Origin: Terriglobia bacterium
Lineage (GTDB): Bacteria > Acidobacteriota > Terriglobia > UBA7540
Direction of reading: 5' to 3'
Length of the DNA stretch: 59,561 bases
Assembly (NCBI GenBank): GCA_035532595.1
Contig: DATKQU010000209.1
Coordinates: forward strand, 1 to 59,561
The notes below the pieces were generated by a model, which did not search any database, was not told where the DNA came from, and worked only from the letters and a program-made list of their open reading frames with translations. The position numbers and the translations under genes were made by a program. This document shows positions 29,101-59,124 of the stretch, piece by piece; the first letter of the stretch is position 1; each line of letters opens with the position of its first letter.

Positions 29101-29297
29101 GGCCTCCCTAGTTTAATCCGAAACGGCTGTGGGAAGCACTCTCCCATCATGGCGGCGCGGAACGGTGCTTCCGGGCTTGCTTTACCGAACTGCCAGGTGC
29201 GAGCCGGACCGCCAGCATTGGCCGGCCCTGGAAAGCCGCCCAGCTTGAGCCGGCGTGCTTTTTCGTGGTATAAATGAGTCTGACAAGCAGTAGCAAT

Positions 29298-29464
29298 GAC
29301 CTTCGGGGCAGGGTGAGGGAAGAAAGGATTCTTCCCAATTCCCGATCGGCGGTAGAGCCCGCAAGGGGAAGAGGACGAGCAAGACTGCCGGATGGCAGAT
29401 GCCCGAATCCCCACGACCCGGTGAAACTCCGGGGCCGACGGTAAAGTCCGGATGGGAGAAGGTC
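29298..29464 (+). promoter_or_regulatory. FMN riboswitch (RFN element)
   Basis: P1 GACCTTC/GAAGGTC. Conserved GGGGCAGGGTGA...AATTCCCGATCGGCGGTAGAGCCCGC and GGTGAAACTCCGGGGCCGACGGTAAAGTCCGGATGGGAGAAGG. Lies upstream of ribE. Confidence 0.9.
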
Positions 29465-29726
29465 AGGGTCCCACGACCTCTGCGTTGCGGTCCATTGGCA
29501 GCCGCGGCGGAGTGTGGCCATGGGTATTGAGCGGTATCCCACCTTGCCCCGCGCGGGGAATTTCCCCCGATGATACTGAGATCCTGAACCCATTCCGATC
29601 CGTCGGGCTGATCTGCGGACCTTGAGCACGTCGCGGGCGGACCCCTCTCGAGCGCGCTTCAAAACACCGGGCGCGGCGAGGTGAGACCCGAATGCCAGCC
29701 GAAATTTCAGAGCAAGCGAGTGATTT

Positions 29727-38553: not shown

Positions 38554-38698
38554 GGTTCTCCTCGCCTCGCTTGCAGCGCCGGGCTAGATGCCCGGCATGC
38601 CGCCCTGAAGGGCGGCGCTGCGAACAAAGATGTTTTCCGAATGCAACCCTTGGAAGAATTACAGATCGCGCCCGGCAAATCAAGCTGCGAGCCCGCTG

Positions 38699-38787
38699 GG
38701 TAGTGGGTCGATTTGGCCGGGTAGCGGCAAGTTTACCTCGCCATGTGGCGGCATAAAGCCGCCTCTACGTCAAAATGACCCACTACC
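38699..38787. mobile_element. 89-nt MITE with GGTAGTGGGTC terminal inverted repeats and a perfect 8-bp TSD (GCCCGCTG)
   Basis: GCCCGCTG at 38691..38698 and at 38788..38795 flank the element. The second copy (4 mismatches) is at 52182..52270. Confidence 0.75.
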
Positions 38788-38933
38788 GCCCGCTGAATGA
38801 CGTATTGACAATTTTACCCTTAAGAACTGATACTTGGTTTGCTTAGTTGATGGAAAGAGCAAAGGACGCACAGAAAATCAGGACATTTGACCCCTTGCCG
38901 CTGCGGGAACGCTTCTCCTCCCGGGATTTTTCC

Positions 38934-49645: not shown

Positions 49646-49901
49646 GGCCCTCTTGCACTAAAAGTCTGTTAAGTTTTTAAACGTTTGATTCTATCGTTCA
49701 CGCCGTCCATGTGTCAATCCAAACCTCAGCAAGGTGGTGTCCAATTTGCCTGAGCCGGTCGCGTAAATAACTTGCTTTTGGAGACAAAATATAACCCACA
49801 ACACACTGAAAGTGTATCATGGGCTACCCGGCCTTATGCGGGTGCCGTTGTACGTTCAACAGACAACGAGGAGCAAAGAACACCAGCTAAACCAGTACAA
49901 C

Positions 49902-50780
49902 ATGACTATTGGTATTAGTTTACTTTGCGAGTCTGGCAACACACTTCTATTGGGAGCAGATGCACGTGCGTCGTATGCTGGTACGCAACCGCTCCCCCGC
50001 CCGCATGATGATATGTGCAAGATATTTACTCTTCCTTTGGGGTTTCAAGCCGTTATCGCCGGATACTTTGATGCCTGCGAAGCCGTGATAGCCTCTCTTA
50101 CAGAAGCATTTAGGCGCGTTAAACAAGAATTACAAGGAAAAGAAGTGGGGCTAGATCATCTTCGTTTTGCTGTTACAGAAGCAGAAGCGCACGAATGGCA
50201 GATTATTCTTGATAGGGAATTTCAAAAACATCTTGGTATACGGCATCGGGATTGGACAACAGGCCCGCTAGATACGCGCCTAGTTCGAGCGGGTAAGCGG
50301 ATAGTACAGCAAACAAATTTTCCCGTACACCTCATCATTACCGGTTTTACCAGCTATGAGCCAATCATTTTCACTGTATCGGGACTCGATACTATCAGTT
50401 TCCCGCAAAAATTTGCTGTTATTGGCAGCGGTTTTACATTGGCAACAAACGCCTTAAATCAACGCCAGCAGTATGAGCACATGACCTTTCAAAGAAGTGT
50501 CTTTCACTTGATCGAGGCACTAGAAGCGGCAAGGCAAGAACCGCAAGGAACGGTTGGACCGCCAAGGGACATTGTTGTAATCGAGAGAGGGGCCTATAGG
50601 TCGCTACCTGTCCAAGACCCCGTCGTGCGCCAATTGCTATCACAGTATCAAGGCAAAGACAGCAAAGACCTCGATAACGATAATGCCATTCGGCAAAAGC
50701 TACAAAGTATTTTGTACGCCAATCCGCTTGATGAAAGCAATCGGGGGCCGTCGCCGGGCGGGGTTATACCTTCTTCTTAG
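49902..50780 (+). CDS. Proteasome-beta/HslV-like Ntn-hydrolase-fold protein (orphan)
   Basis: MTIGISLLCESGNTLLLGADARAS resembles the T1...G-x-x-L-x-x-D-x-R proteasome-beta N-terminus. A Lys-Ile pair (CKIF) follows downstream, and AVIGSGFTLA appears later. Upstream track starts (49812, 49836) are possible as a propeptide. Confidence 0.55.
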   Translation: MTIGISLLCESGNTLLLGADARASYAGTQPLPRPHDDMCKIFTLPLGFQAVIAGYFDACEAVIASLTEAFRRVKQELQGKEVGLDHLRFAVTEAEAHEWQIILDREFQKHLGIRHRDWTTGPLDTRLVRAGKRIVQQTNFPVHLIITGFTSYEPIIFTVSGLDTISFPQKFAVIGSGFTLATNALNQRQQYEHMTFQRSVFHLIEALEAARQEPQGTVGPPRDIVVIERGAYRSLPVQDPVVRQLLSQYQGKDSKDLDNDNAIRQKLQSILYANPLDESNRGPSPGGVIPSS

Positions 50781-50925
50781 CCCATCGCGCTAACACCGCT
50801 TTCCGCGCTGACTGACTGCGTTGCTCTGGCGTCATAGCTGCGGCCCTGGCAGGACCGCCCTTCTTACCACCCTTGCTTCCGAGCTTGGCAAGGTAAGCTC
50901 GAAGTTCTGGAGGCATCTTGTTCAT
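50764..50925 (-). CDS. Candidate 53-aa lysine/arginine-rich small protein (below the ORF-track cutoff)
   Basis: Reads MNKMPPELRAYLAKLGSKGGKKGGPARAAAMTPEQRSQSARKAVLARWAKKKV. Convergent with, and overlapping by 17 nt, the 3' end of the Ntn-hydrolase-like gene. Confidence 0.35.
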   Translation of the reverse strand: MNKMPPELRAYLAKLGSKGGKKGGPARAAAMTPEQRSQSARKAVLARWAKKKV

Positions 50926-50966
50926 GGCCCAAACCTACCTGAGCCGCTCACGAAAGTCAAGGAAAA

Positions 50967-51128
50967 CTAGAGTGGGTGCTTCTTGAGATACAAAAACATG
51001 CCGTATGCGAGCATTACGGCGAGCATAAAGCCGTACTTACCTTTTTCTGAAGCCAGCCACAAAATGAACGTTGCGCTCGCCAATAAGCCCACAAGTGCAA
51101 ATAGCGATTTTGAAGAGTTGTCCGCCAT
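50967..51128 (-). CDS. Candidate 53-aa two-helix small membrane protein (below the ORF-track cutoff)
   Basis: Reads MADNSSKSLFALVGLLASATFILWLASEKGKYGFMLAVMLAYGMFLYLKKHPL. Two hydrophobic stretches. Weak RBS. Confidence 0.35.
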   Translation of the reverse strand: MADNSSKSLFALVGLLASATFILWLASEKGKYGFMLAVMLAYGMFLYLKKHPL

Positions 51129-51310
51129 AGGTTTTTAGGGTTTCCGGTGTGCCTGTGCCAAGGCGTCGCTTCGGCGCGGTGTGTATGGCATTTCCCCGCC
51201 TACTGGCAACGGCGATAGCCCGAGCAACAGGCACGCCGGAAATATAGCACAACCCTACGCTTAACTAGTGTCAAAACTGCCTGCAATGCAGTGCAGGCCT
51301 AAAAGTTTAT

Positions 51311-51651
51311 GGGGTGAGTAGGTCTGAGGGCTGGTGTCAATCCAGACACCAGCCCCTTAACGCCGGGCTGGTTTCTGTTAACGAGTTGCCAGTCCGACGG
51401 CAACGATTGCCAGAAGGTCAAAACCGCCTTACGACGACTCCGTTTCGGACGCAGCGCAGAATCCCTGCTTTGCGTCAGGATGCATAGTCTCTATAGGCAA
51501 AGTACACCTATGGCAAGATGGCTGTTGCCGTACCGTTGCGCGGCTGATCCTGCCGCCATCCGCACTTCTGGCCCCAGGTGCATCAAAAGTGTTTTCAATG
51601 CACACCTCCTCCCGGAGTGCCGGGTCGCCAGAATTGTAACTCACCCCACCA
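51311..51651 (+). ncRNA. Candidate structured RNA of unknown class
   Basis: A 9-bp long-range helix GGGGTGAGT (51311..51319)/ACTCACCCC (51639..51647), followed by ACCA, encloses at least 6 local hairpins (for example the 11-bp GGGCTGGTGTC/GACACCAGCCC at 51328..51355). No convincing ORF. Confidence 0.3.
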
Positions 51652-51757
51652 GTTCTGATACCGATTAAGTCACCGGCAGTGATGTCCGATCTGCCATGAG
51701 TAGCTTACGCAAATAGTTAACCTGTAGGGCAACCAAATCCAAAAAGAGAGGTATGCA

Positions 51758-52102
51758 ATGACCAAAACGCAGTGCTATAGTTCTTGGCCGGAGGGTCTAT
51801 ACCGCATGAGCCAAGAAGATCAAGACAAGCAGTTTATCAGCGACCTACAAAAATATACCGAGTTGCAAGCTAGCTTGGCGTCTGTCCAAGCAACGCTCAC
51901 CGACATCGGAAGAAATCTGAAAGGAACAGGTGAGAGCGTGGAACGCGACCCTTATAACTGCTCAACCGAGTGGGGTATATTTAAGAGCCAAACAAGCCAA
52001 ATTGAGGGGCTCGTAAAGCAGTTCAAAGAGGAATCGAACGAAAGCCAAAGGCTTGCAGAGTCATTAAGAAAAAGACGGTTTACCTTCCCGCCCAATAAGT
52101 AA
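51758..52102 (+). CDS. Hypothetical coiled-coil protein (114 aa)
   Basis: AGAGAGG RBS. Heptad-like LQKYTELQASLASVQATLTDIG and IEGLVKQFKEESNESQRLAESL. No family recognised. Confidence 0.5.
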   Translation: MTKTQCYSSWPEGLYRMSQEDQDKQFISDLQKYTELQASLASVQATLTDIGRNLKGTGESVERDPYNCSTEWGIFKSQTSQIEGLVKQFKEESNESQRLAESLRKRRFTFPPNK

Positions 52103-52181
52103 CCAACTCACGCAATTCCACCACCAAAGCCTGTGCAAGTACGTGACCGGCTCAGGCAAATTAGGACACCACCCTCAGCAA

Positions 52182-52270
52182 GGTAGTGGGTCAATTTGGC
52201 TGGGTAGCGGCGAGTTTACCTCGCCATGTGGCGGCATAAAGCCGCCTCTAGGTCAAAATGACCCACTACC
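52182..52270. mobile_element. 89-nt MITE (second copy) directly abutting the cassette TSD
   Basis: Same element as 38699..38787. Flanked by CTCAGCAA (52174..52181) and CTCAGCGA (52271..52278). Confidence 0.75.
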
Positions 52271-52457
52271 CTCAGCGACTTAGCCTACACGCGCTGGATC
52301 GACCGCGCTTGCAAAGCAATCCTCCAGGCTTAAGCGGCCAGGAAGAGCGTTTTCACAACGAAGAGGAACGCCAAGCCTGCCGTCCCGGCTGCGCTGTCGG
52401 AGTAAATTCGAAGTAAAGAGCGAATCGGCCTTCGCAGACCGAATGCAGGGAAAAACA

Positions 52458-53023
52458 GGTAAGCGCGAGCAAGCCTGTAAGCCGAATTTTGTACCCCGGA
52501 GGTCCGGGGTGGCGATCATTCATCTAGCCCCGTCATTGCTGGCGGGGTCAAGCGACCTACCCGAGAGTTGCCAGCCCGTAGCGGCGGCCCGTGACCGCCG
52601 TGCGCGGCCCGCGGGAACCCCGGCGATCACCGATCGCCGCTACAGACCTTGCGGAGCGGGTCACTCCTCCTCTCCTATTTGGTCTTGCTCCGTGTGGGGT
52701 TTGCCCTGCCCCCCATATCGCTATGGAGGCGGTGCGCTCTTACATTAAGCCGCCTGCGCGGCCGCACCTTTTCACCCTTACCGCGTCCCCATTCTGGAAT
52801 TCCAGAGGAGACGCCGGCGGTATCTTTTCTGTGGCACTTTCCGTACCGGAGGCGTACGCTCGCTTGCGCGAAATCCCCCTCCGGCCCTCGCTGTTAGCGA
52901 GCACACTACCCTGTGGAGTTCGGACTTTCCTCTCCTCCGCTCCCGCTTGCCTGCCCCGTGCCCGTGAAGGCCGGAAACAGGCGCCTGAGCGGAGCAGCGA
53001 TCACCCGGCTTACTCGCGCTGCC
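52458..53023 (-). ncRNA. rnpB: RNase P RNA, bacterial type A, unusually long
   Basis: The minus strand reads GGAGGAGAGGAAAGTCCGAACTCCACAGGG, GGTAAGGGTGAAAAGGTGCGG...TAAGAGCGCACC, CACGGAGCAAGACCAAATAGG and GGGTAGGTCGCTTGA...CTAGATGAATGATCGCCAC...ACAAAATTCGGCTTACAGG. P1 is GCGCGAGTAAGCC/GGCTTGCTCGCGC. Ends are good to about 5 nt either way. Confidence 0.9.
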
Positions 53024-55204: not shown

Positions 55205-57604
55205 ATGCATGATCAGCCTGAAGCTTTTTCCCGTGTCCTGATAGATCAAGCCCTCCGAGAGAGTGATTGGGACCTCCTCGACCCGCACCGGGTTCGTTTT
55301 GAGCTTAATGGTCATAGCGGGCGGGCGGATTATGTCTTGAGCGGGTCGCGCGGGCCGCTCTGCGTTTTGGAAGCCAAGCGCGAAGATAAGGACCCCTACG
55401 AAGCCAAAGAGCAAGCGCGCGGCTATGCGGAAAACCTTCGTGCGCCCTTCATTATTCTTTCCAACGGGCGAGAACATTGGTTCTGGAACTACGAGCGAGC
55501 AGACCAGCGTGATGCCTACCGCATCGAGCGCTTACCGTCCCCCCAAGACCTCGACCGTCTCCGCCTCAAGAATCTCCAGCCGCCCCGTCCCTTAATGACG
55601 GAGGTCATTGGGCCAGATTACCTTAACGCGTACAAGCCGGACGTGACATTGCGGCGTTACCAGATCGCCGCCATGGATGAAGTTTCAAGGCAGTTTGACG
55701 ACCAGGGAAAACGAAGGTTTCTGCTGGAAATGGCCACCGGGACCGGTAAAACGCTCTTGTGCGCGGCGCTGATTCGCCGTTTCCTTGCCACGCGAAACGC
55801 CGAGCGCGTGCTTTTCATCGTGGACCGTATCGAACTGGCAAAGCAAACGATGGAGGACTTTAACGTCGTGCTGCGGGAATTCAGCCCCGTAGTGTTCAAG
55901 ACCGCACGCCGCCACCCGTCGGAATTGCTGGGCTCCTGCGTGGTGGTGGCAACGCTCCAATCCCTCATGGTGGACCGTCGCTTTCGCCAGGAGTTCACGC
56001 CATTCCACTTTGATCTGGTCATTGCCGATGAAGCGCACCGTTCCATATATGGCAACGCTCGCGAGGTCGTACATTTCTTTCAGGCGACTCGCATTGGCCT
56101 GACTGCCACGCCCAAGGCATATCTCAAGAATATTGATTTGGCCCGGCTCGGGCGGGAAAACCCTAAAGCCCTTGAAGCCCGCGAGCTTCGCGACACCTAC
56201 CACTACTTTGGCTGCGAGGCCGGTTTCCCCACATTTCGCTATGACATCATTGAGGCCGTCCAGGACCCCGAAGGGCCGTTCCTCTGCATGCCGAAGATTT
56301 ACGACATCCGTTCGGACATCACCACTCAGGCACTGGACGAAAACGGCTGGGCCGTGGTGGTTAACGAACAGGAGGAAAACTTCAAGATTCAGGACCTGGA
56401 GCGCAAAATCTTCACCCCGGAGCGGAACCGGGTGATGTGCGAAGCGTTTCTCAAACATGCCCAAAAGGACCCTTCCGGCCAGATCGGCAAGTCCGCCATT
56501 TTTGCGGTCAATCAAGACCACGCGACGAACCTTACTAAAATCCTTAACCTCATCCAGCCGGGCTTGGCCGTCACCATCACTTCGCGTATTCCCGAAGCGG
56601 CTTCCATCTCGAAAGATTTCCGCGACGGCAAGCGCTCCGAGCGCGTGGCGGTGTCCGTCGATATGCTCTCCACGGGGTACAACTGCCGCGACCTGTTGAA
56701 TGTGGTCCTCATGCGGCCGATTTTTTCTCCCACCGAATACATCCAGATCAAGGGCCGGGGCACGCGCCTTTTCACTTTTCGCTTTGGCAACACCGAATAC
56801 GAAAAGAAAGTATTCTTCCTGCTTGATTTCTGCGGGGTGGCCGAGTACTTCGAGGACACGTACGATTACAGCGAACCCCTGCCCATCCCCGTCCTGAGGG
56901 GAAAGCCATCCGTGCAGCTTGAGGTGGCACGGGCTTCCAGCCCGTGGACGGATGACACGGGCATTCTGCCTACGGCCAGGCACGGTCAAGATGACCATGC
57001 CACAGGCATCCCCGTGTGGGAAGGCAAGGACGTCATCATTTCCGAAGAAATCCGTATCGTGGGACCCAACGGTGAAAAGGTGGATGTGATGACCTTCCGG
57101 GGTTCTTTCGAGCGGGACATCAAAGAATTTGACCGTAAGGATGAGGAATTTCACGAAGCGGTCGAGACTGAAGGCGATGACGCCGTTGAAGAAATCCTTG
57201 GCGAACGTTTCTTTCACAAACCCGAGATGTTTTATTCCCCGGACAAACTGGTGTTATCCTATGGCGTTCCGGCTCCTACGCCTACTTTTGTTTACGGCGC
57301 TCTGGGCAAGAAGCCCTTGCCGAGCAAAGACGAGGTGGTTGCCGATGCCGTGGATTCCATCGCCGCGCGGTTCAATCTCCACTACAGCGAACAGAAGTGG
57401 TTGAACGCCACGGCACAGCTTCTCGCGCATGACCCGGCGGCTCTCAAACGCTTTGCGCAGGGTGACATGACGATTTTCGCGTCCAGCCAGTTCAATCAAT
57501 TGGGGGGCCTCGAAGCGCTGAACGAATTCACTGACCGCGACGAGGTTTTTGAGGCGCTTCGGCAATCCACCATGGTCCGCCAGTCGCTTCTGGCCGCTCA
57601 GTAA
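55205..57604 (+). CDS. hsdR: Type I restriction enzyme R subunit (EcoEI-type C-terminal domain)
   Basis: PD-(D/E)xK region ADYVL...VLEAKRE. Helicase motifs MATGTGKT, IADEAHRS, IGLTATP, QIKGRGTR. C-terminal FNQLGG tail. Contains an in-frame REP copy. Confidence 0.9.
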   Translation: MHDQPEAFSRVLIDQALRESDWDLLDPHRVRFELNGHSGRADYVLSGSRGPLCVLEAKREDKDPYEAKEQARGYAENLRAPFIILSNGREHWFWNYERADQRDAYRIERLPSPQDLDRLRLKNLQPPRPLMTEVIGPDYLNAYKPDVTLRRYQIAAMDEVSRQFDDQGKRRFLLEMATGTGKTLLCAALIRRFLATRNAERVLFIVDRIELAKQTMEDFNVVLREFSPVVFKTARRHPSELLGSCVVVATLQSLMVDRRFRQEFTPFHFDLVIADEAHRSIYGNAREVVHFFQATRIGLTATPKAYLKNIDLARLGRENPKALEARELRDTYHYFGCEAGFPTFRYDIIEAVQDPEGPFLCMPKIYDIRSDITTQALDENGWAVVVNEQEENFKIQDLERKIFTPERNRVMCEAFLKHAQKDPSGQIGKSAIFAVNQDHATNLTKILNLIQPGLAVTITSRIPEAASISKDFRDGKRSERVAVSVDMLSTGYNCRDLLNVVLMRPIFSPTEYIQIKGRGTRLFTFRFGNTEYEKKVFFLLDFCGVAEYFEDTYDYSEPLPIPVLRGKPSVQLEVARASSPWTDDTGILPTARHGQDDHATGIPVWEGKDVIISEEIRIVGPNGEKVDVMTFRGSFERDIKEFDRKDEEFHEAVETEGDDAVEEILGERFFHKPEMFYSPDKLVLSYGVPAPTPTFVYGALGKKPLPSKDEVVADAVDSIAARFNLHYSEQKWLNATAQLLAHDPAALKRFAQGDMTIFASSQFNQLGGLEALNEFTDRDEVFEALRQSTMVRQSLLAAQ
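56924..57003 (+). repeat. GTGGCACGGGC-type REP copy inside hsdR
   Basis: GTGGCACGGGCTTCCAGCCCGTG...CACGGTCAAGATGACCATGCCAC, translated as ...VARASSPW...ARHGQDDHAT. Confidence 0.75.
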
Positions 57605-57606
57605 AG

Positions 57607-57658
57607 GTGGCACGGGCATCTTGCCCGTGAAGCCTCATGGCCCGGAGGGCCATGCCAC
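57607..57658 (+). repeat. GTGGCACGGGC-type REP copy in the hsdR-hsdM spacer
   Basis: GTGGCACGGGCATCTTGCCCGTGAAGCCTCATGGCCCGGAGGGCCATGCCAC. Two nested hairpins inside an outer GTGGCA/TGCCAC stem. Confidence 0.8.
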
Positions 57659-57681
57659 AGGGCAATTAGCTGATTCTTCTT

Positions 57682-59124
57682 ATGGGAAATAACACGCAAC
57701 AACACAACGGGAGTAATTTTCATTCCTCCGGCCTGCGCCAAAAGATTGACCTGCTCATGGACATCCTTTGGGCGGGCGGCGTGAATAACCCCATGGATTC
57801 CATCGAGCAGATTTCCTACTTGCTCTTTCTGCGCCTGCTCACGGAAAGGGATGACATTCTCGCCTCGCTCCAGAAGAAGGGCTACCAGCGCATCTTTTCG
57901 GGATCGTGGGCGCGCTACGCCTGGGGGAATTTTGTCACCCTCACCGGCGATCAGCTTTTTGACGCCGTCCGGTCTGCGATTGAAAGCATCCACGAACTGC
58001 CGGGGCTTTCGGGAACCGGAAAACTTCTTTTCAATCGCGCCACGCTCAAGATTTATGACCGCCCCACGCTTCGGGCCGTTGTCCAGGCCATCCATGAGAT
58101 GGATCTTGCCTCACACAATGGACATGACATCAAGGGCGATATGTACGAGTACCTGCTCAGCAAACTCCAATTGTCCGGCACCAACGGCCAATTCCGGACC
58201 CCGCGCCACATTATCGCCATGATCGTGGCACTCGTTGATCCCAAGCCGGGAATGCGCATCTGCGACCCTGCCTGTGGCACAGCAGGCTTCCTCATCGCAG
58301 CATACAACCATATCTTGCGGCAGAACACATCCAAGGCGGCGCTCGCCAAAGGCGATTCAGACGGCGATTTATTGAAGCCTGCACAATGGAGATTCCTGGA
58401 GGAACACGCCTTCACCGGCTATGACAATGACGCCAACATGGTAAAGATTGCGATTTTGAATCTTTATCTGCACAAGCTGGAAAGGGCCAACATTGAGCTT
58501 CACAATCCCCTGACCACAAGCAAGGGTAACCCCTATCCCGGCTTCACCTTTGACACGATTCTCGCCAATCCGCCGTTTGCGGGACAGATTCAAAAGGAAA
58601 GTATCCTTGCGGACATCAACCTTGAGACGCGAGACACAGAACTGCTCTTCCTCAAGTGGTTCCTCGACCACCTGAATCCCGTCGGACGCGCCGGTGTGAT
58701 CGTTCCGAACGGCGTGTTTAAGCCCTATTCCGGCGTCGGCACTGCGGCGCTGATTCTTGAAAAATGTGGCACGGGCGTCCCTCCCGTTAAAGACCATGGT
58801 CAGGATGACCATGCCACGGAGTTTGTCTGGTTCTATGACCTCACGGCGGATGGATTTTCCCTCGATGATAAGCGCGCTCCAATTGAGGCCAATGATATTC
58901 CCGATGTTCTAGCTAAATGGCCCAAGCGCGAAGAAGGTCCGAACAGTTACCGTGTGCCAATTGAGAAGATTCGCGAGCACGATTGGAGTCTCGCGTCAGG
59001 CAGATACAAGCCGGTGGTGGTGGAGACGGTTAAGCACGATGCACCGGCAAAAATTGTCGGCGCCATCTTGAGTCTCGAGAAGCAGATCACCGAAGAAATC
59101 CAGAAGCTGATGGAGAAGCTGTAA
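57682..59124 (+). CDS. hsdM: Type I R-M N6-adenine DNA methyltransferase subunit, probably defective
   Basis: HsdM N-terminal domain, motif I DPACGTAGFL, motif IV NPPF. Carries an in-frame REP insertion and appears to lack about 30 aa between PNGV and FKPYSGV. Confidence 0.8.
   Translation: MGNNTQQHNGSNFHSSGLRQKIDLLMDILWAGGVNNPMDSIEQISYLLFLRLLTERDDILASLQKKGYQRIFSGSWARYAWGNFVTLTGDQLFDAVRSAIESIHELPGLSGTGKLLFNRATLKIYDRPTLRAVVQAIHEMDLASHNGHDIKGDMYEYLLSKLQLSGTNGQFRTPRHIIAMIVALVDPKPGMRICDPACGTAGFLIAAYNHILRQNTSKAALAKGDSDGDLLKPAQWRFLEEHAFTGYDNDANMVKIAILNLYLHKLERANIELHNPLTTSKGNPYPGFTFDTILANPPFAGQIQKESILADINLETRDTELLFLKWFLDHLNPVGRAGVIVPNGVFKPYSGVGTAALILEKCGTGVPPVKDHGQDDHATEFVWFYDLTADGFSLDDKRAPIEANDIPDVLAKWPKREEGPNSYRVPIEKIREHDWSLASGRYKPVVVETVKHDAPAKIVGAILSLEKQITEEIQKLMEKL
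58766..58817 (+). repeat. GTGGCACGGGC-type REP copy inside hsdM
   Basis: GTGGCACGGGCGTCCCTCCCGTTAAAGACCATGGTCAGGATGACCATGCCAC, translated as CGTGVPPVKDHGQDDHAT. Confidence 0.8.

Follow-up and report, generated by a model that had tools for sequence, protein, structure and literature searches.

A predicted proteasome β-like threonine hydrolase on a non-autonomous mobile cassette of a Terriglobia bacterium, with relatives in IS1595-type elements

Introduction

Bacterial proteasome homologs are usually discussed as ancient housekeeping proteases. What one of them might be doing on a mobile cassette is the question posed by contig DATKQU010000209.1 of a Terriglobia bacterium (Acidobacteriota; GenBank assembly GCA_035532595.1), analyzed here over its whole stretch of 59,561 nucleotides (the window). 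The gene at positions 49902 to 50780 of the plus strand encodes a protein of 292 amino acids, which had been picked out from the DNA alone as an orphan proteasome-β/HslV-like N-terminal nucleophile (Ntn) hydrolase and the main passenger of such a cassette. That observation of the original prediction is confirmed, and its interpretation as a member of the proteasome-β/Ntn-hydrolase family is supported. The explanation that is likely to hold as a whole is that the protein is a Thr hydrolase of the proteasome-β superfamily, translated from the ATG at 49902, and belongs to a family carried as a passenger of insertion sequence (IS) elements of the IS1595 type, represented in the window by a non-autonomous cassette.

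Sequence relationships and conserved residues

From the ATG at 49902 onward, the protein reads MTIGISLLCESGNTLLLGADARAS...CKIF...AVIGSGFTLA. Its key codons are those for Thr2 (49905 to 49907), Asp20 (49959 to 49961), Arg22 (49965 to 49967), Lys40 (50019 to 50021), Gly54 (50061 to 50063), and Gly175-Ser176-Gly177 (50424 to 50432); Lys40 is located within CKIF, 20 residues past Asp20, and AVIGSGFTLA spans residues 172 to 181. Taken alone, the protein shows a weak similarity to the Proteasome family (Pfam ID PF00227), with an E value of 1.1e-3 and a score of 19.1 bits, and matches the archaeal β-subunit model TIGR03634 with an E value of 9e-5. A word-indexed search of 5.8 billion proteins returned a single relative, P0002, with 51% identity, and no other protein above 35% identity. 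When a two-sequence profile was compared with PDB, the three best matches were all to the β subunit of T. acidophilum. An exhaustive HMMER search, with a profile of the window protein and P0002 as the query and 1.84 billion cluster representatives as the target, found 164 clusters at E values of ≤1e-3 and 76 at ≤1e-10. The family thus comprises about 160 clusters at 50% identity, nearly all of them from metagenomes and metagenome-assembled genomes (MAGs) of Acidobacteria.

A family profile (A2) was built from 69 full-length members, whose mean column identity is 18%. It matches 290 distinct PDB sequences at E values of ≤1, and the best 60 of the 290 are all proteasome subunits. The top match is the β subunit of M. 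jannaschii (3h4p_a; E value of 5.4e-17), with the family Met-Thr placed on Met-Thr1, the Asp on Asp17, the Arg on Arg19, and the Lys on Lys33; in the second half of the alignment, IGSG falls on the Gly-Ser129-Gly motif. The catalytic Thr1 with its Asp/Arg pattern, the assignment of the CKIF lysine to Lys33, and the identification of AVIGSGFTLA with the GSG segment, all read from the single sequence by the original prediction, are therefore borne out by the profile. Among the 69 members, 23 match PF00227 (E value of <0.01) and 36 match arc_protsome_B, with no consistent match to any other family. At E values of ≤0.01, no member matches an NCBIfam model other than those of the archaeal proteasome β and α subunits.

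Conservation across the same 69 proteins follows the catalytic positions. Lys40 and Gly175 are invariant (69/69 each), Asp20 is present in 68/69, and Thr2 is present in 66/69, with Ser in another 2/69. The remaining positions are Gly177 (63/69), Gly54 (57/69), Arg or Lys at position 22 (56/69), and Ser or Thr at position 176 (54/69). The distance from Lys40 to Gly54 is 14 residues, equal to that from Lys33 to Gly47 in β subunits. Given the profile alignment to the archaeal β subunit and this conservation over 69 homologs, the motif resemblances are not due to chance.

No relatives were found among IMG/VR contigs, PLSDB plasmids, or GenBank phages, and the proteasome-like proteins of phages resemble it at the fold level only. 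Among PHROGs, only an HslV-like family was matched, by 8 of the 69 members, and the PADLOC defense models gave no meaningful match.

Predicted structure

The AlphaFold2 (AF2) model derived from the 69-member alignment has a pLDDT (predicted local distance difference test) of 94.1 and a pTM (predicted template-modeling score) of 0.90. It displays the α-β-β-α sandwich of proteasome subunits, and a Foldseek comparison with PDB places archaeal and eukaryotic 20S β subunits at the top, with E values of ~7e-11 and target-normalized template-modeling (TM) scores of 0.7 to 0.82. There are 1188 Foldseek matches at E values of ≤1e-3, of which the best 50 are all proteasome subunits or Anbu, with target-normalized TM scores of 0.65 to 0.82. 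The model has long helices H1 (residues 56 to 77) and H2 (84 to 111), followed at the "pore-loop" site past H2 by extra helices at 115 to 120 and 125 to 137. About 55 residues extend beyond the last core strand, in agreement with the C-terminal extension of some 50 residues that had been predicted, and are modeled as helices in the region of 240 to 280; this extension contains a conserved (K/R)D(T/S)xxLD motif. These insertions may alter or block oligomerization.

Several observations weigh against a straightforward assignment to the proteasome. The window protein alone stays under the PF00227 gathering cutoff (19.1 versus 22.4 bits), the Ser169 of 20S β subunits is replaced in the family by a conserved Val (V218), and the position of Asp166 is variable, so that the periphery of the active site differs from that of 20S β. 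Nevertheless, the weak Pfam match of the single protein is joined by a strong match of the family profile, a confident AF2 model, and the Foldseek matches, which together place the family. Homology, fold, and an intact catalytic constellation are established computationally, and membership in the proteasome-β fold with the catalytic positions intact is virtually certain. From the conservation of these positions, we infer Thr-dependent hydrolase activity, which is probable.

Comparison with known proteasome homologs

The work of Fuchs, Alva, and Lupas (2021; PMC8665760) added 22 families of orphan proteasome-like proteins, and orphan proteasome homologs are thus already catalogued and not new in themselves. 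The window protein finds its best match in both sequence and structure in the archaeal-type 20S β subunit (MEROPS T1A; PF00227; TIGR03634), with which it shares the Ntn fold and the aligned Thr1, Asp17, Arg19, Lys33, Gly47, and Gly-Ser129-Gly positions. Unlike that subunit, it has no α-subunit gene within ~10 kb and no propeptide ending in Gly-1 (residue -1 is Met, Val, or Leu), contains about 90 extra residues (in the long H1/H2, the two inserted helices, and the C-terminal helical extension), has Val in place of Ser169, and is carried on a transposable element.

The alternative label in the original prediction, HslV-like, fits less well than proteasome-β, as the protein is closer to archaeal-type β subunits than to HslV. 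HslV (ClpQ) is likewise bacterial, belongs to the Thr1 protease superfamily, and has a propeptide-less Met-Thr start. However, it is a compact protein of ~175 amino acids encoded beside hslU, whereas the window protein has 292 amino acids and no hslU within ~10 kb; the hhalign comparison with Escherichia coli HslV (85% probability; E value of 7e-6) indicates remote similarity. Anbu shares bacterial proteasome homology and a C-terminal helical extension and is matched by Foldseek, lower in the ranking than 20S β subunits (5nyg; E value of 4e-10), but its ATP-grasp, transglutaminase-like, and α-E partners are absent near the window gene, and it superimposes less well, with a root mean square deviation above 7 Å. 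Connectase is devoid of H1/H2 and has a two-helix insertion between S3 and S4, whereas the AF2 model has long H1/H2 helices and no such insertion. Identification as HslV, Anbu, a bona fide 20S β subunit, or connectase was accordingly rejected on grounds of partners, size, propeptide, or helices.

[quoted passage not shown] The window protein resembles PHI, by description only, in the absence of a propeptide, the link to archaeal β, the helices at 115 to 120 and 125 to 137 after H2, and the helical C terminus.

Translation start and N terminus

The longest open reading frame (ORF) runs from a GTG at 49812 to the stop at 50780 and encodes 322 amino acids; its Met31 corresponds to the ATG at 49902 and is followed by TIGISLLCESGNTLLLGADARAS. 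The Thr motif was located in 98 family proteins. The residue ahead of it is Met in 75, Val in 20, and Leu in 2, so that 97 of the 98 are compatible with an ATG, GTG, TTG, or CTG start at this codon. As many as 55 proteins begin exactly at Met-Thr or Val-Thr, and the 43 with upstream-extended gene calls all have Met, Val, or Leu, and never Gly, before the Thr. At most loci, a Shine-Dalgarno-like purine run is found 5 to 11 nt ahead of the pre-Thr codon. Because the pre-Thr codon fits a start codon in 97 of 98 members, translation of the window gene, as predicted, most likely starts at 49902 and is followed by removal of the Met. Such removal by methionine aminopeptidase is an established step when the second residue is small, and also in the case of HslV. 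The in-frame extension at 49812 to 49901 (plus strand; 30 codons), which has a further ATG at 49836 and contains HGLPGLMRVP, is probably a 5' untranslated region.

A different reading, in which the protein is made as an extended precursor from the GTG at 49812 or the ATG at 49836, with a propeptide of about 30 residues autoprocessed before the Thr as in 20S β subunits, draws on several features that speak against the shorter form. The 30 upstream codons are open, and HGLPGLMRVP resembles RGLPA(I/L)L, found at a similar in-frame distance in P0003, P0006, P0011, P0098, and L020. The five residues shared by the window and L020 all differ at the third codon position, a coding-like pattern that favors upstream translation, and no obvious Shine-Dalgarno sequence precedes the ATG at 49902. 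On the other hand, the Gly that is characteristic of autoprocessed β subunits never occurs before the Thr, even in the extended gene calls, and more than half of the members examined start directly at Met-Thr or Val-Thr. Propeptides are, moreover, reported by Fuchs et al. for 20S β and HslV only (PMC8665760). Another upstream peptide, YPFTHP, was tried as a propeptide motif and rejected: it overlaps a -10 box (TA[TC]CCT) that, in L018 and L019, lies 17 nt past a TTGAC(A/G) -35 box within the left inverted repeat, and its conservation is thus at the DNA level. As this coincidence illustrates, upstream peptide motifs can mirror conservation of the DNA. A precursor is regarded as unlikely, and as an option for a subclade, and the start at 49902 is retained here.

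Association of the family with IS1595 elements

The genomic context was compared in 13 independent lineages of homologs, not counting the window. A convergent Zn-ribbon/DDE_Tnp_IS1595 transposase gene is found directly downstream of the protease gene in P0002 (L001 to L004), P0160 (L005), P0157 (L010 to L013), P0156 (L016 and L017), and L019 (an Acidobacteriaceae MAG); in P0002 and P0156, the 3' ends of the two genes overlap. The same convergent arrangement is seen in L018 (a "Candidatus Acidoferrum" MAG), where the transposase is internally deleted and only residues 1 to 39 and 220 to 294 are left. In these six IS1595 cases, both genes lie between inverted repeats of the type CA(G/A/C)GATTAT..ACTTGACAAAAG, and the elements, 1.6 to 2.9 kb in length, are flanked by 8-bp direct repeats (TTACAAAA, GGAATTCT, AGAAATCC, TACGAATC, and TTTGAC(C/T)T). 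The order in all six independent lineages is the left inverted repeat, the protease, the convergent transposase, the right inverted repeat, and the 8-bp target duplications.

According to the TnCentral preprint, elements of this kind form a recognized class, transporter IS (tIS), among the IS1595 and IS66 families. The related loci share with IS1595 tIS the transposase, the terminal repeats, the 8-bp duplications, and one or more passengers, and the six cases are bona fide tIS elements of the IS1595 family. Among the lineages closest to the window, the proteasome-like gene is the conserved passenger of such elements. Not all lineages conform to this pattern. P0154, P0159, P0152, and L020, i.e., 4 of the 13, have no transposase, some family members being solo chromosomal genes, and two others adjoin transposases of other types, DDE_Tnp_1 in P0166, together with a second homolog, and Y1 in P0161. 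In P0164, an IS1595 transposase is found 3 kb away, in a phage-like region. The lineages without a transposase or with one of another type weigh against a strict association; still, the status of the family as a passenger of IS1595-type elements is regarded as very likely.

The passenger and the transposase do not diverge in step. The transposases of L001, L005, L016, and L019 share 66 to 82% identity, and their passengers share 24 to 56%, which means either that the rate of evolution is much higher for the passenger than for the transposase or that passengers have been swapped between elements. A test for coevolution found no correlation between the two divergences (Spearman 0.10; n = 10 pairs), with the passenger always far more diverged.

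Individual elements show further details. The element of L018 (1233 to 2828; MAG DATNMU010000115.1) is a natural non-autonomous derivative that keeps the repeats, the 8-bp duplication TACGAATC, and the proteasome-like gene; the same MAG has a second, apparently frameshifted passenger copy (L020). Inward-facing TTGACA or TTGACG sequences are found in the left repeats of L001 (6676 to 6700), L005 (7887 to 7916), L016 (1108 to 1127), and L019 (5911 to 5935), and in L018 and L019 a TA(T/C)CCT box lies 17 nt past the TTGAC(A/G). This combination is probably a promoter of the passenger gene within the IS end. In L009 (925 to 4908), a DDE_Tnp_1/SWIM transposase gene and a 141-amino acid ORF have a proteasome-like gene on either side, the two being divergent, a case of similar cargo with another transposase family. 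The distant member P0152 is encoded in tandem with a 404-amino acid paralog that has a faint match to PF00227 (L069, 318 to 2499; L070, 1702 to 3883); this pair adjoins ruvA-ruvB and may form a two-subunit system.

The cassette in the window

The protease gene of the window is located in an island of low G+C content (0.45 to 0.50, versus 0.55 to 0.65 in the flanks). The cassette comprises 2441 bp (49733 to 52173) with ends of the type GGTGGTGTCCAATTTGCC; its termini are inverted repeats, and on either side lies a copy of a perfect 8-bp direct repeat, CTCAGCAA. The left terminal repeat (49733 to 49765, plus strand; 33 nt; GGTGGTGTCCAATTTGCCTGAGCCGGTCGCGTA) is 96% identical to the right one over 23 nt, plus an extension, and the right repeat (52140 to 52173, minus strand; 34 nt) differs from it by one indel and one mismatch. 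The left copy of the target duplication is found at 49725 to 49732, and the right copy, at 52174 to 52181, doubles as the left flank of an adjacent miniature inverted-repeat transposable element (MITE). Carriage of the gene on a mobile cassette, as originally predicted, is thus evident both from these repeats with their 8-bp duplication and from the homologs that are themselves passengers of IS1595-family elements.

The protease gene starts 169 nt inside the left end. Its 3' end is overlapped by 17 nt by a convergent ORF (50764 to 50925, minus strand) that encodes a small, very basic, KGG/ARW-rich protein of 53 amino acids (…SKGGKKGGPARAAAMTPEQRSQSARKAVLARWAKKKV) without a Pfam match; this ORF occupies the place that the 3' end of the transposase gene has in the intact IS elements. 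It is followed by a partial third copy of the left-end repeat (50929 to 50952, plus strand; CCAAACCTACCTGAGCCGCTCACG), which may be the scar of a nested or rearranged element, and by a putative ORF for a small hydrophobic protein of 53 amino acids (50967 to 51128, minus strand). A 114-amino acid ORF with a good Shine-Dalgarno sequence (51758 to 52102, plus strand) represents a second cargo gene, whose only homolog, 71% identical, is found on contig L071.

The cassette has terminal repeats and an 8-bp duplication, as IS1595 elements do, and is devoid of the Zn-ribbon/DDE_Tnp_IS1595 transposase. A tblastn search of the 50.8- to 52.1-kb region, for which the queries were three transposases of the IS1595 type and one of the DDE_Tnp_1 type, gave no significant match; the best one (51456 to 51521; E value of 0.36) lies at the expected place and on the expected strand, which is not evidence of a transposase. 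The missing transposase, the inverted repeats that differ from the CA(G/A)GATTAT-type ends of the homolog-bearing elements, and the fact that 8-bp duplications are not unique to IS1595 all count against placing the cassette in this family, and the first two set it apart from the tIS described above. Its layout and passenger, together with the 8-bp duplication, lead us to infer that it is nevertheless of the IS1595 type. It is read here as a non-autonomous, 8-bp-duplicating unit with the layout of an IS1595 tIS and a different type of repeat, whose transposase would have to be supplied in trans.

The adjacent MITE (52182 to 52270, plus strand) is an 89-bp hairpin with ends related to those of the cassette (GGTAGTGGGTCAATTTGG...). 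Right after it, at 52271 to 52278, the target occurs for the third time, as CTCAGCGA, which points to one 8-bp target having received two insertions in succession. A second copy, 95% identical, is found at 38699 to 38787 (plus strand) with a perfect 8-bp duplication, GCCCGCTG, at 38691 to 38698 and 38788 to 38795; a third, inverted and with a different junction, is found on L071. Positions 1 to 850 of this contig, which comes from another metagenome, are 100% identical to window positions 51010 to 51860, a region mostly without long ORFs. Inside the 114-amino acid ORF the identity falls abruptly to ~60%, and the right inverted repeat is retained with two mismatches despite the divergence. This pattern reflects either recombination, which would make L071 a mosaic, or the joining of two related elements into a chimera during assembly. 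Since L071 keeps the right repeat and has the MITE inverted, the cassette ends are under constraint, and the arrangement varies between genomes. In a metagenome scan with an 18-nt core of the repeat, 41 of the 42 matches were chance hits with unrelated flanks, and the remaining one (L023) came from the same genome.

The cassette sits in an intergenic region, with a dksA-like gene on one side and rnpB on the other. To its left, all on the minus strand, are genes for an HNH nuclease, a ComF-like phosphoribosyltransferase, and a DksA/TraR-type zinc finger protein; to its right is the gene for the RNase P RNA (rnpB, bacterial class A; 236 bits; 52462 to 53016, minus strand), and then that for a DUF6782 metallopeptidase. 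Both the cassette and the MITE sit just downstream of the 3' end of the RNase P RNA. The absence of an HslU-like ATPase, an α subunit, and Anbu-type neighbors, on which the claim of an orphan gene had been based, holds within ~10 kb of the protease gene, where no gene for an AAA+ unfoldase/HslU, proteasome α subunit, ATP-grasp protein, or transglutaminase was found. Elsewhere in the window are an FMN riboswitch (29295 to 29467, plus strand; 94.6 bits) and type I restriction-modification genes (55205 to 59124, plus strand), the first for an HsdR-like helicase (ResIII/HSDR_N) and the next for an HsdM methylase.

Predicted function and alternative explanations

After translation from the ATG at 49902, Thr being a permissive second residue, methionine aminopeptidase would remove the Met, as in E. 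coli HslV. The exposed Thr1 might then act together with Asp20, Lys40, the oxyanion Gly54, and Ser176 of the Gly-Ser-Gly motif, as in 20S β subunits. In view of the absence of an ATPase, α-subunit, or Anbu-type partner, the protein probably works alone. The transposase-less cassette would have to be moved in trans. Candidate roles include the turnover or processing of a host factor or of the transposase; a conflict function is suggested by the much faster divergence of the passenger compared with its transposase.

Could the gene instead be an ordinary chromosomal housekeeping homolog, of the HslV, Anbu, BPH, or 20S type, with the flanking repeats being incidental? Its neighbors, the dksA-like and comF-like genes and rnpB, are of that nature, and solo chromosomal genes do occur in the family. 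Yet the genes expected beside such a homolog (hslU, an α-subunit gene, or an Anbu operon) are missing from the surrounding ~10 kb, no HslV, Anbu, or BPH model was matched, and the hhalign comparison with E. coli HslV stays at 85% probability. The low G+C content, the 33-nt inverted repeat, and the perfect 8-bp duplication mark the gene as part of a mobile unit, and a search of 5.8 billion proteins that yields one homolog above 35% identity, alongside homologs inside IS1595 elements, is hardly the record of a housekeeping gene. This explanation is very improbable. A somewhat better, although still improbable, alternative is a protein that has the proteasome fold and no protease activity, either a silent scaffold like the α subunits or a sequence-specific transpeptidase/ligase like archaeal connectase. 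Connectase demonstrates that the fold can ligate instead of degrade (PMC7980362). The helical insertion and the C-terminal extension may prevent ring assembly, outside which 20S and HslV subunits are inactive (PMC8665760), and the change of Ser169 to Val with the unconserved Asp166 points in the same direction. A dead scaffold, however, would not be expected to keep the Thr, Asp, Lys, Gly, and Gly-Ser-Gly residues in a family with a mean column identity as low as 18%, and the long H1/H2 and missing S3/S4 insertion of the AF2 model argue against a connectase-like ligase.

Within the preferred interpretation as a Thr hydrolase, the most far-reaching proposal is that the protein is a functional module of the transposon, an ATPase-independent Thr protease or transpeptidase that might degrade or process the transposase of its own element or some factor of the host or of a competitor. 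An element-linked function is favored by the conserved convergent order of the two genes, their adjacent or overlapping 3' ends, the inward promoter in the left repeat, and the fast divergence of the passenger. At this stage, such a role is a tentative possibility suggested by gene arrangement and divergence.

Implications

Full-text searches of the literature for IS1595 together with a proteasome, or for a proteasome-like protein as a passenger of a transposase element, found no report. Fuchs et al. report a single type of mobile carrier, phages, in the case of the PPH and AAH families, and make no mention of transposons (PMC8665760). The original statement that proteasome homologs on a mobile cassette are not a described arrangement thus stands for carriage by transposons and does not extend to orphan proteasome homologs as such. 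Their recurrent packaging as cargo of IS1595-type elements, here without a transposase, appears to be undescribed in the searchable literature.

The repeated two-gene unit of the protease and an IS1595 transposase represents a new kind of passenger for tIS elements and offers a tractable system for studying the role of a proteasome-like enzyme that has no unfoldase. It may provide a new case of protease-based control of transposition or of conflict between elements. If the protein is indeed a functional module, it would be the first proteasome homolog on a transposon to take part in genetic conflict or in the control of transposition. As connectase did, the family may also yield Thr hydrolases or ligases that are compact, need no partner, and are of interest for biotechnology.

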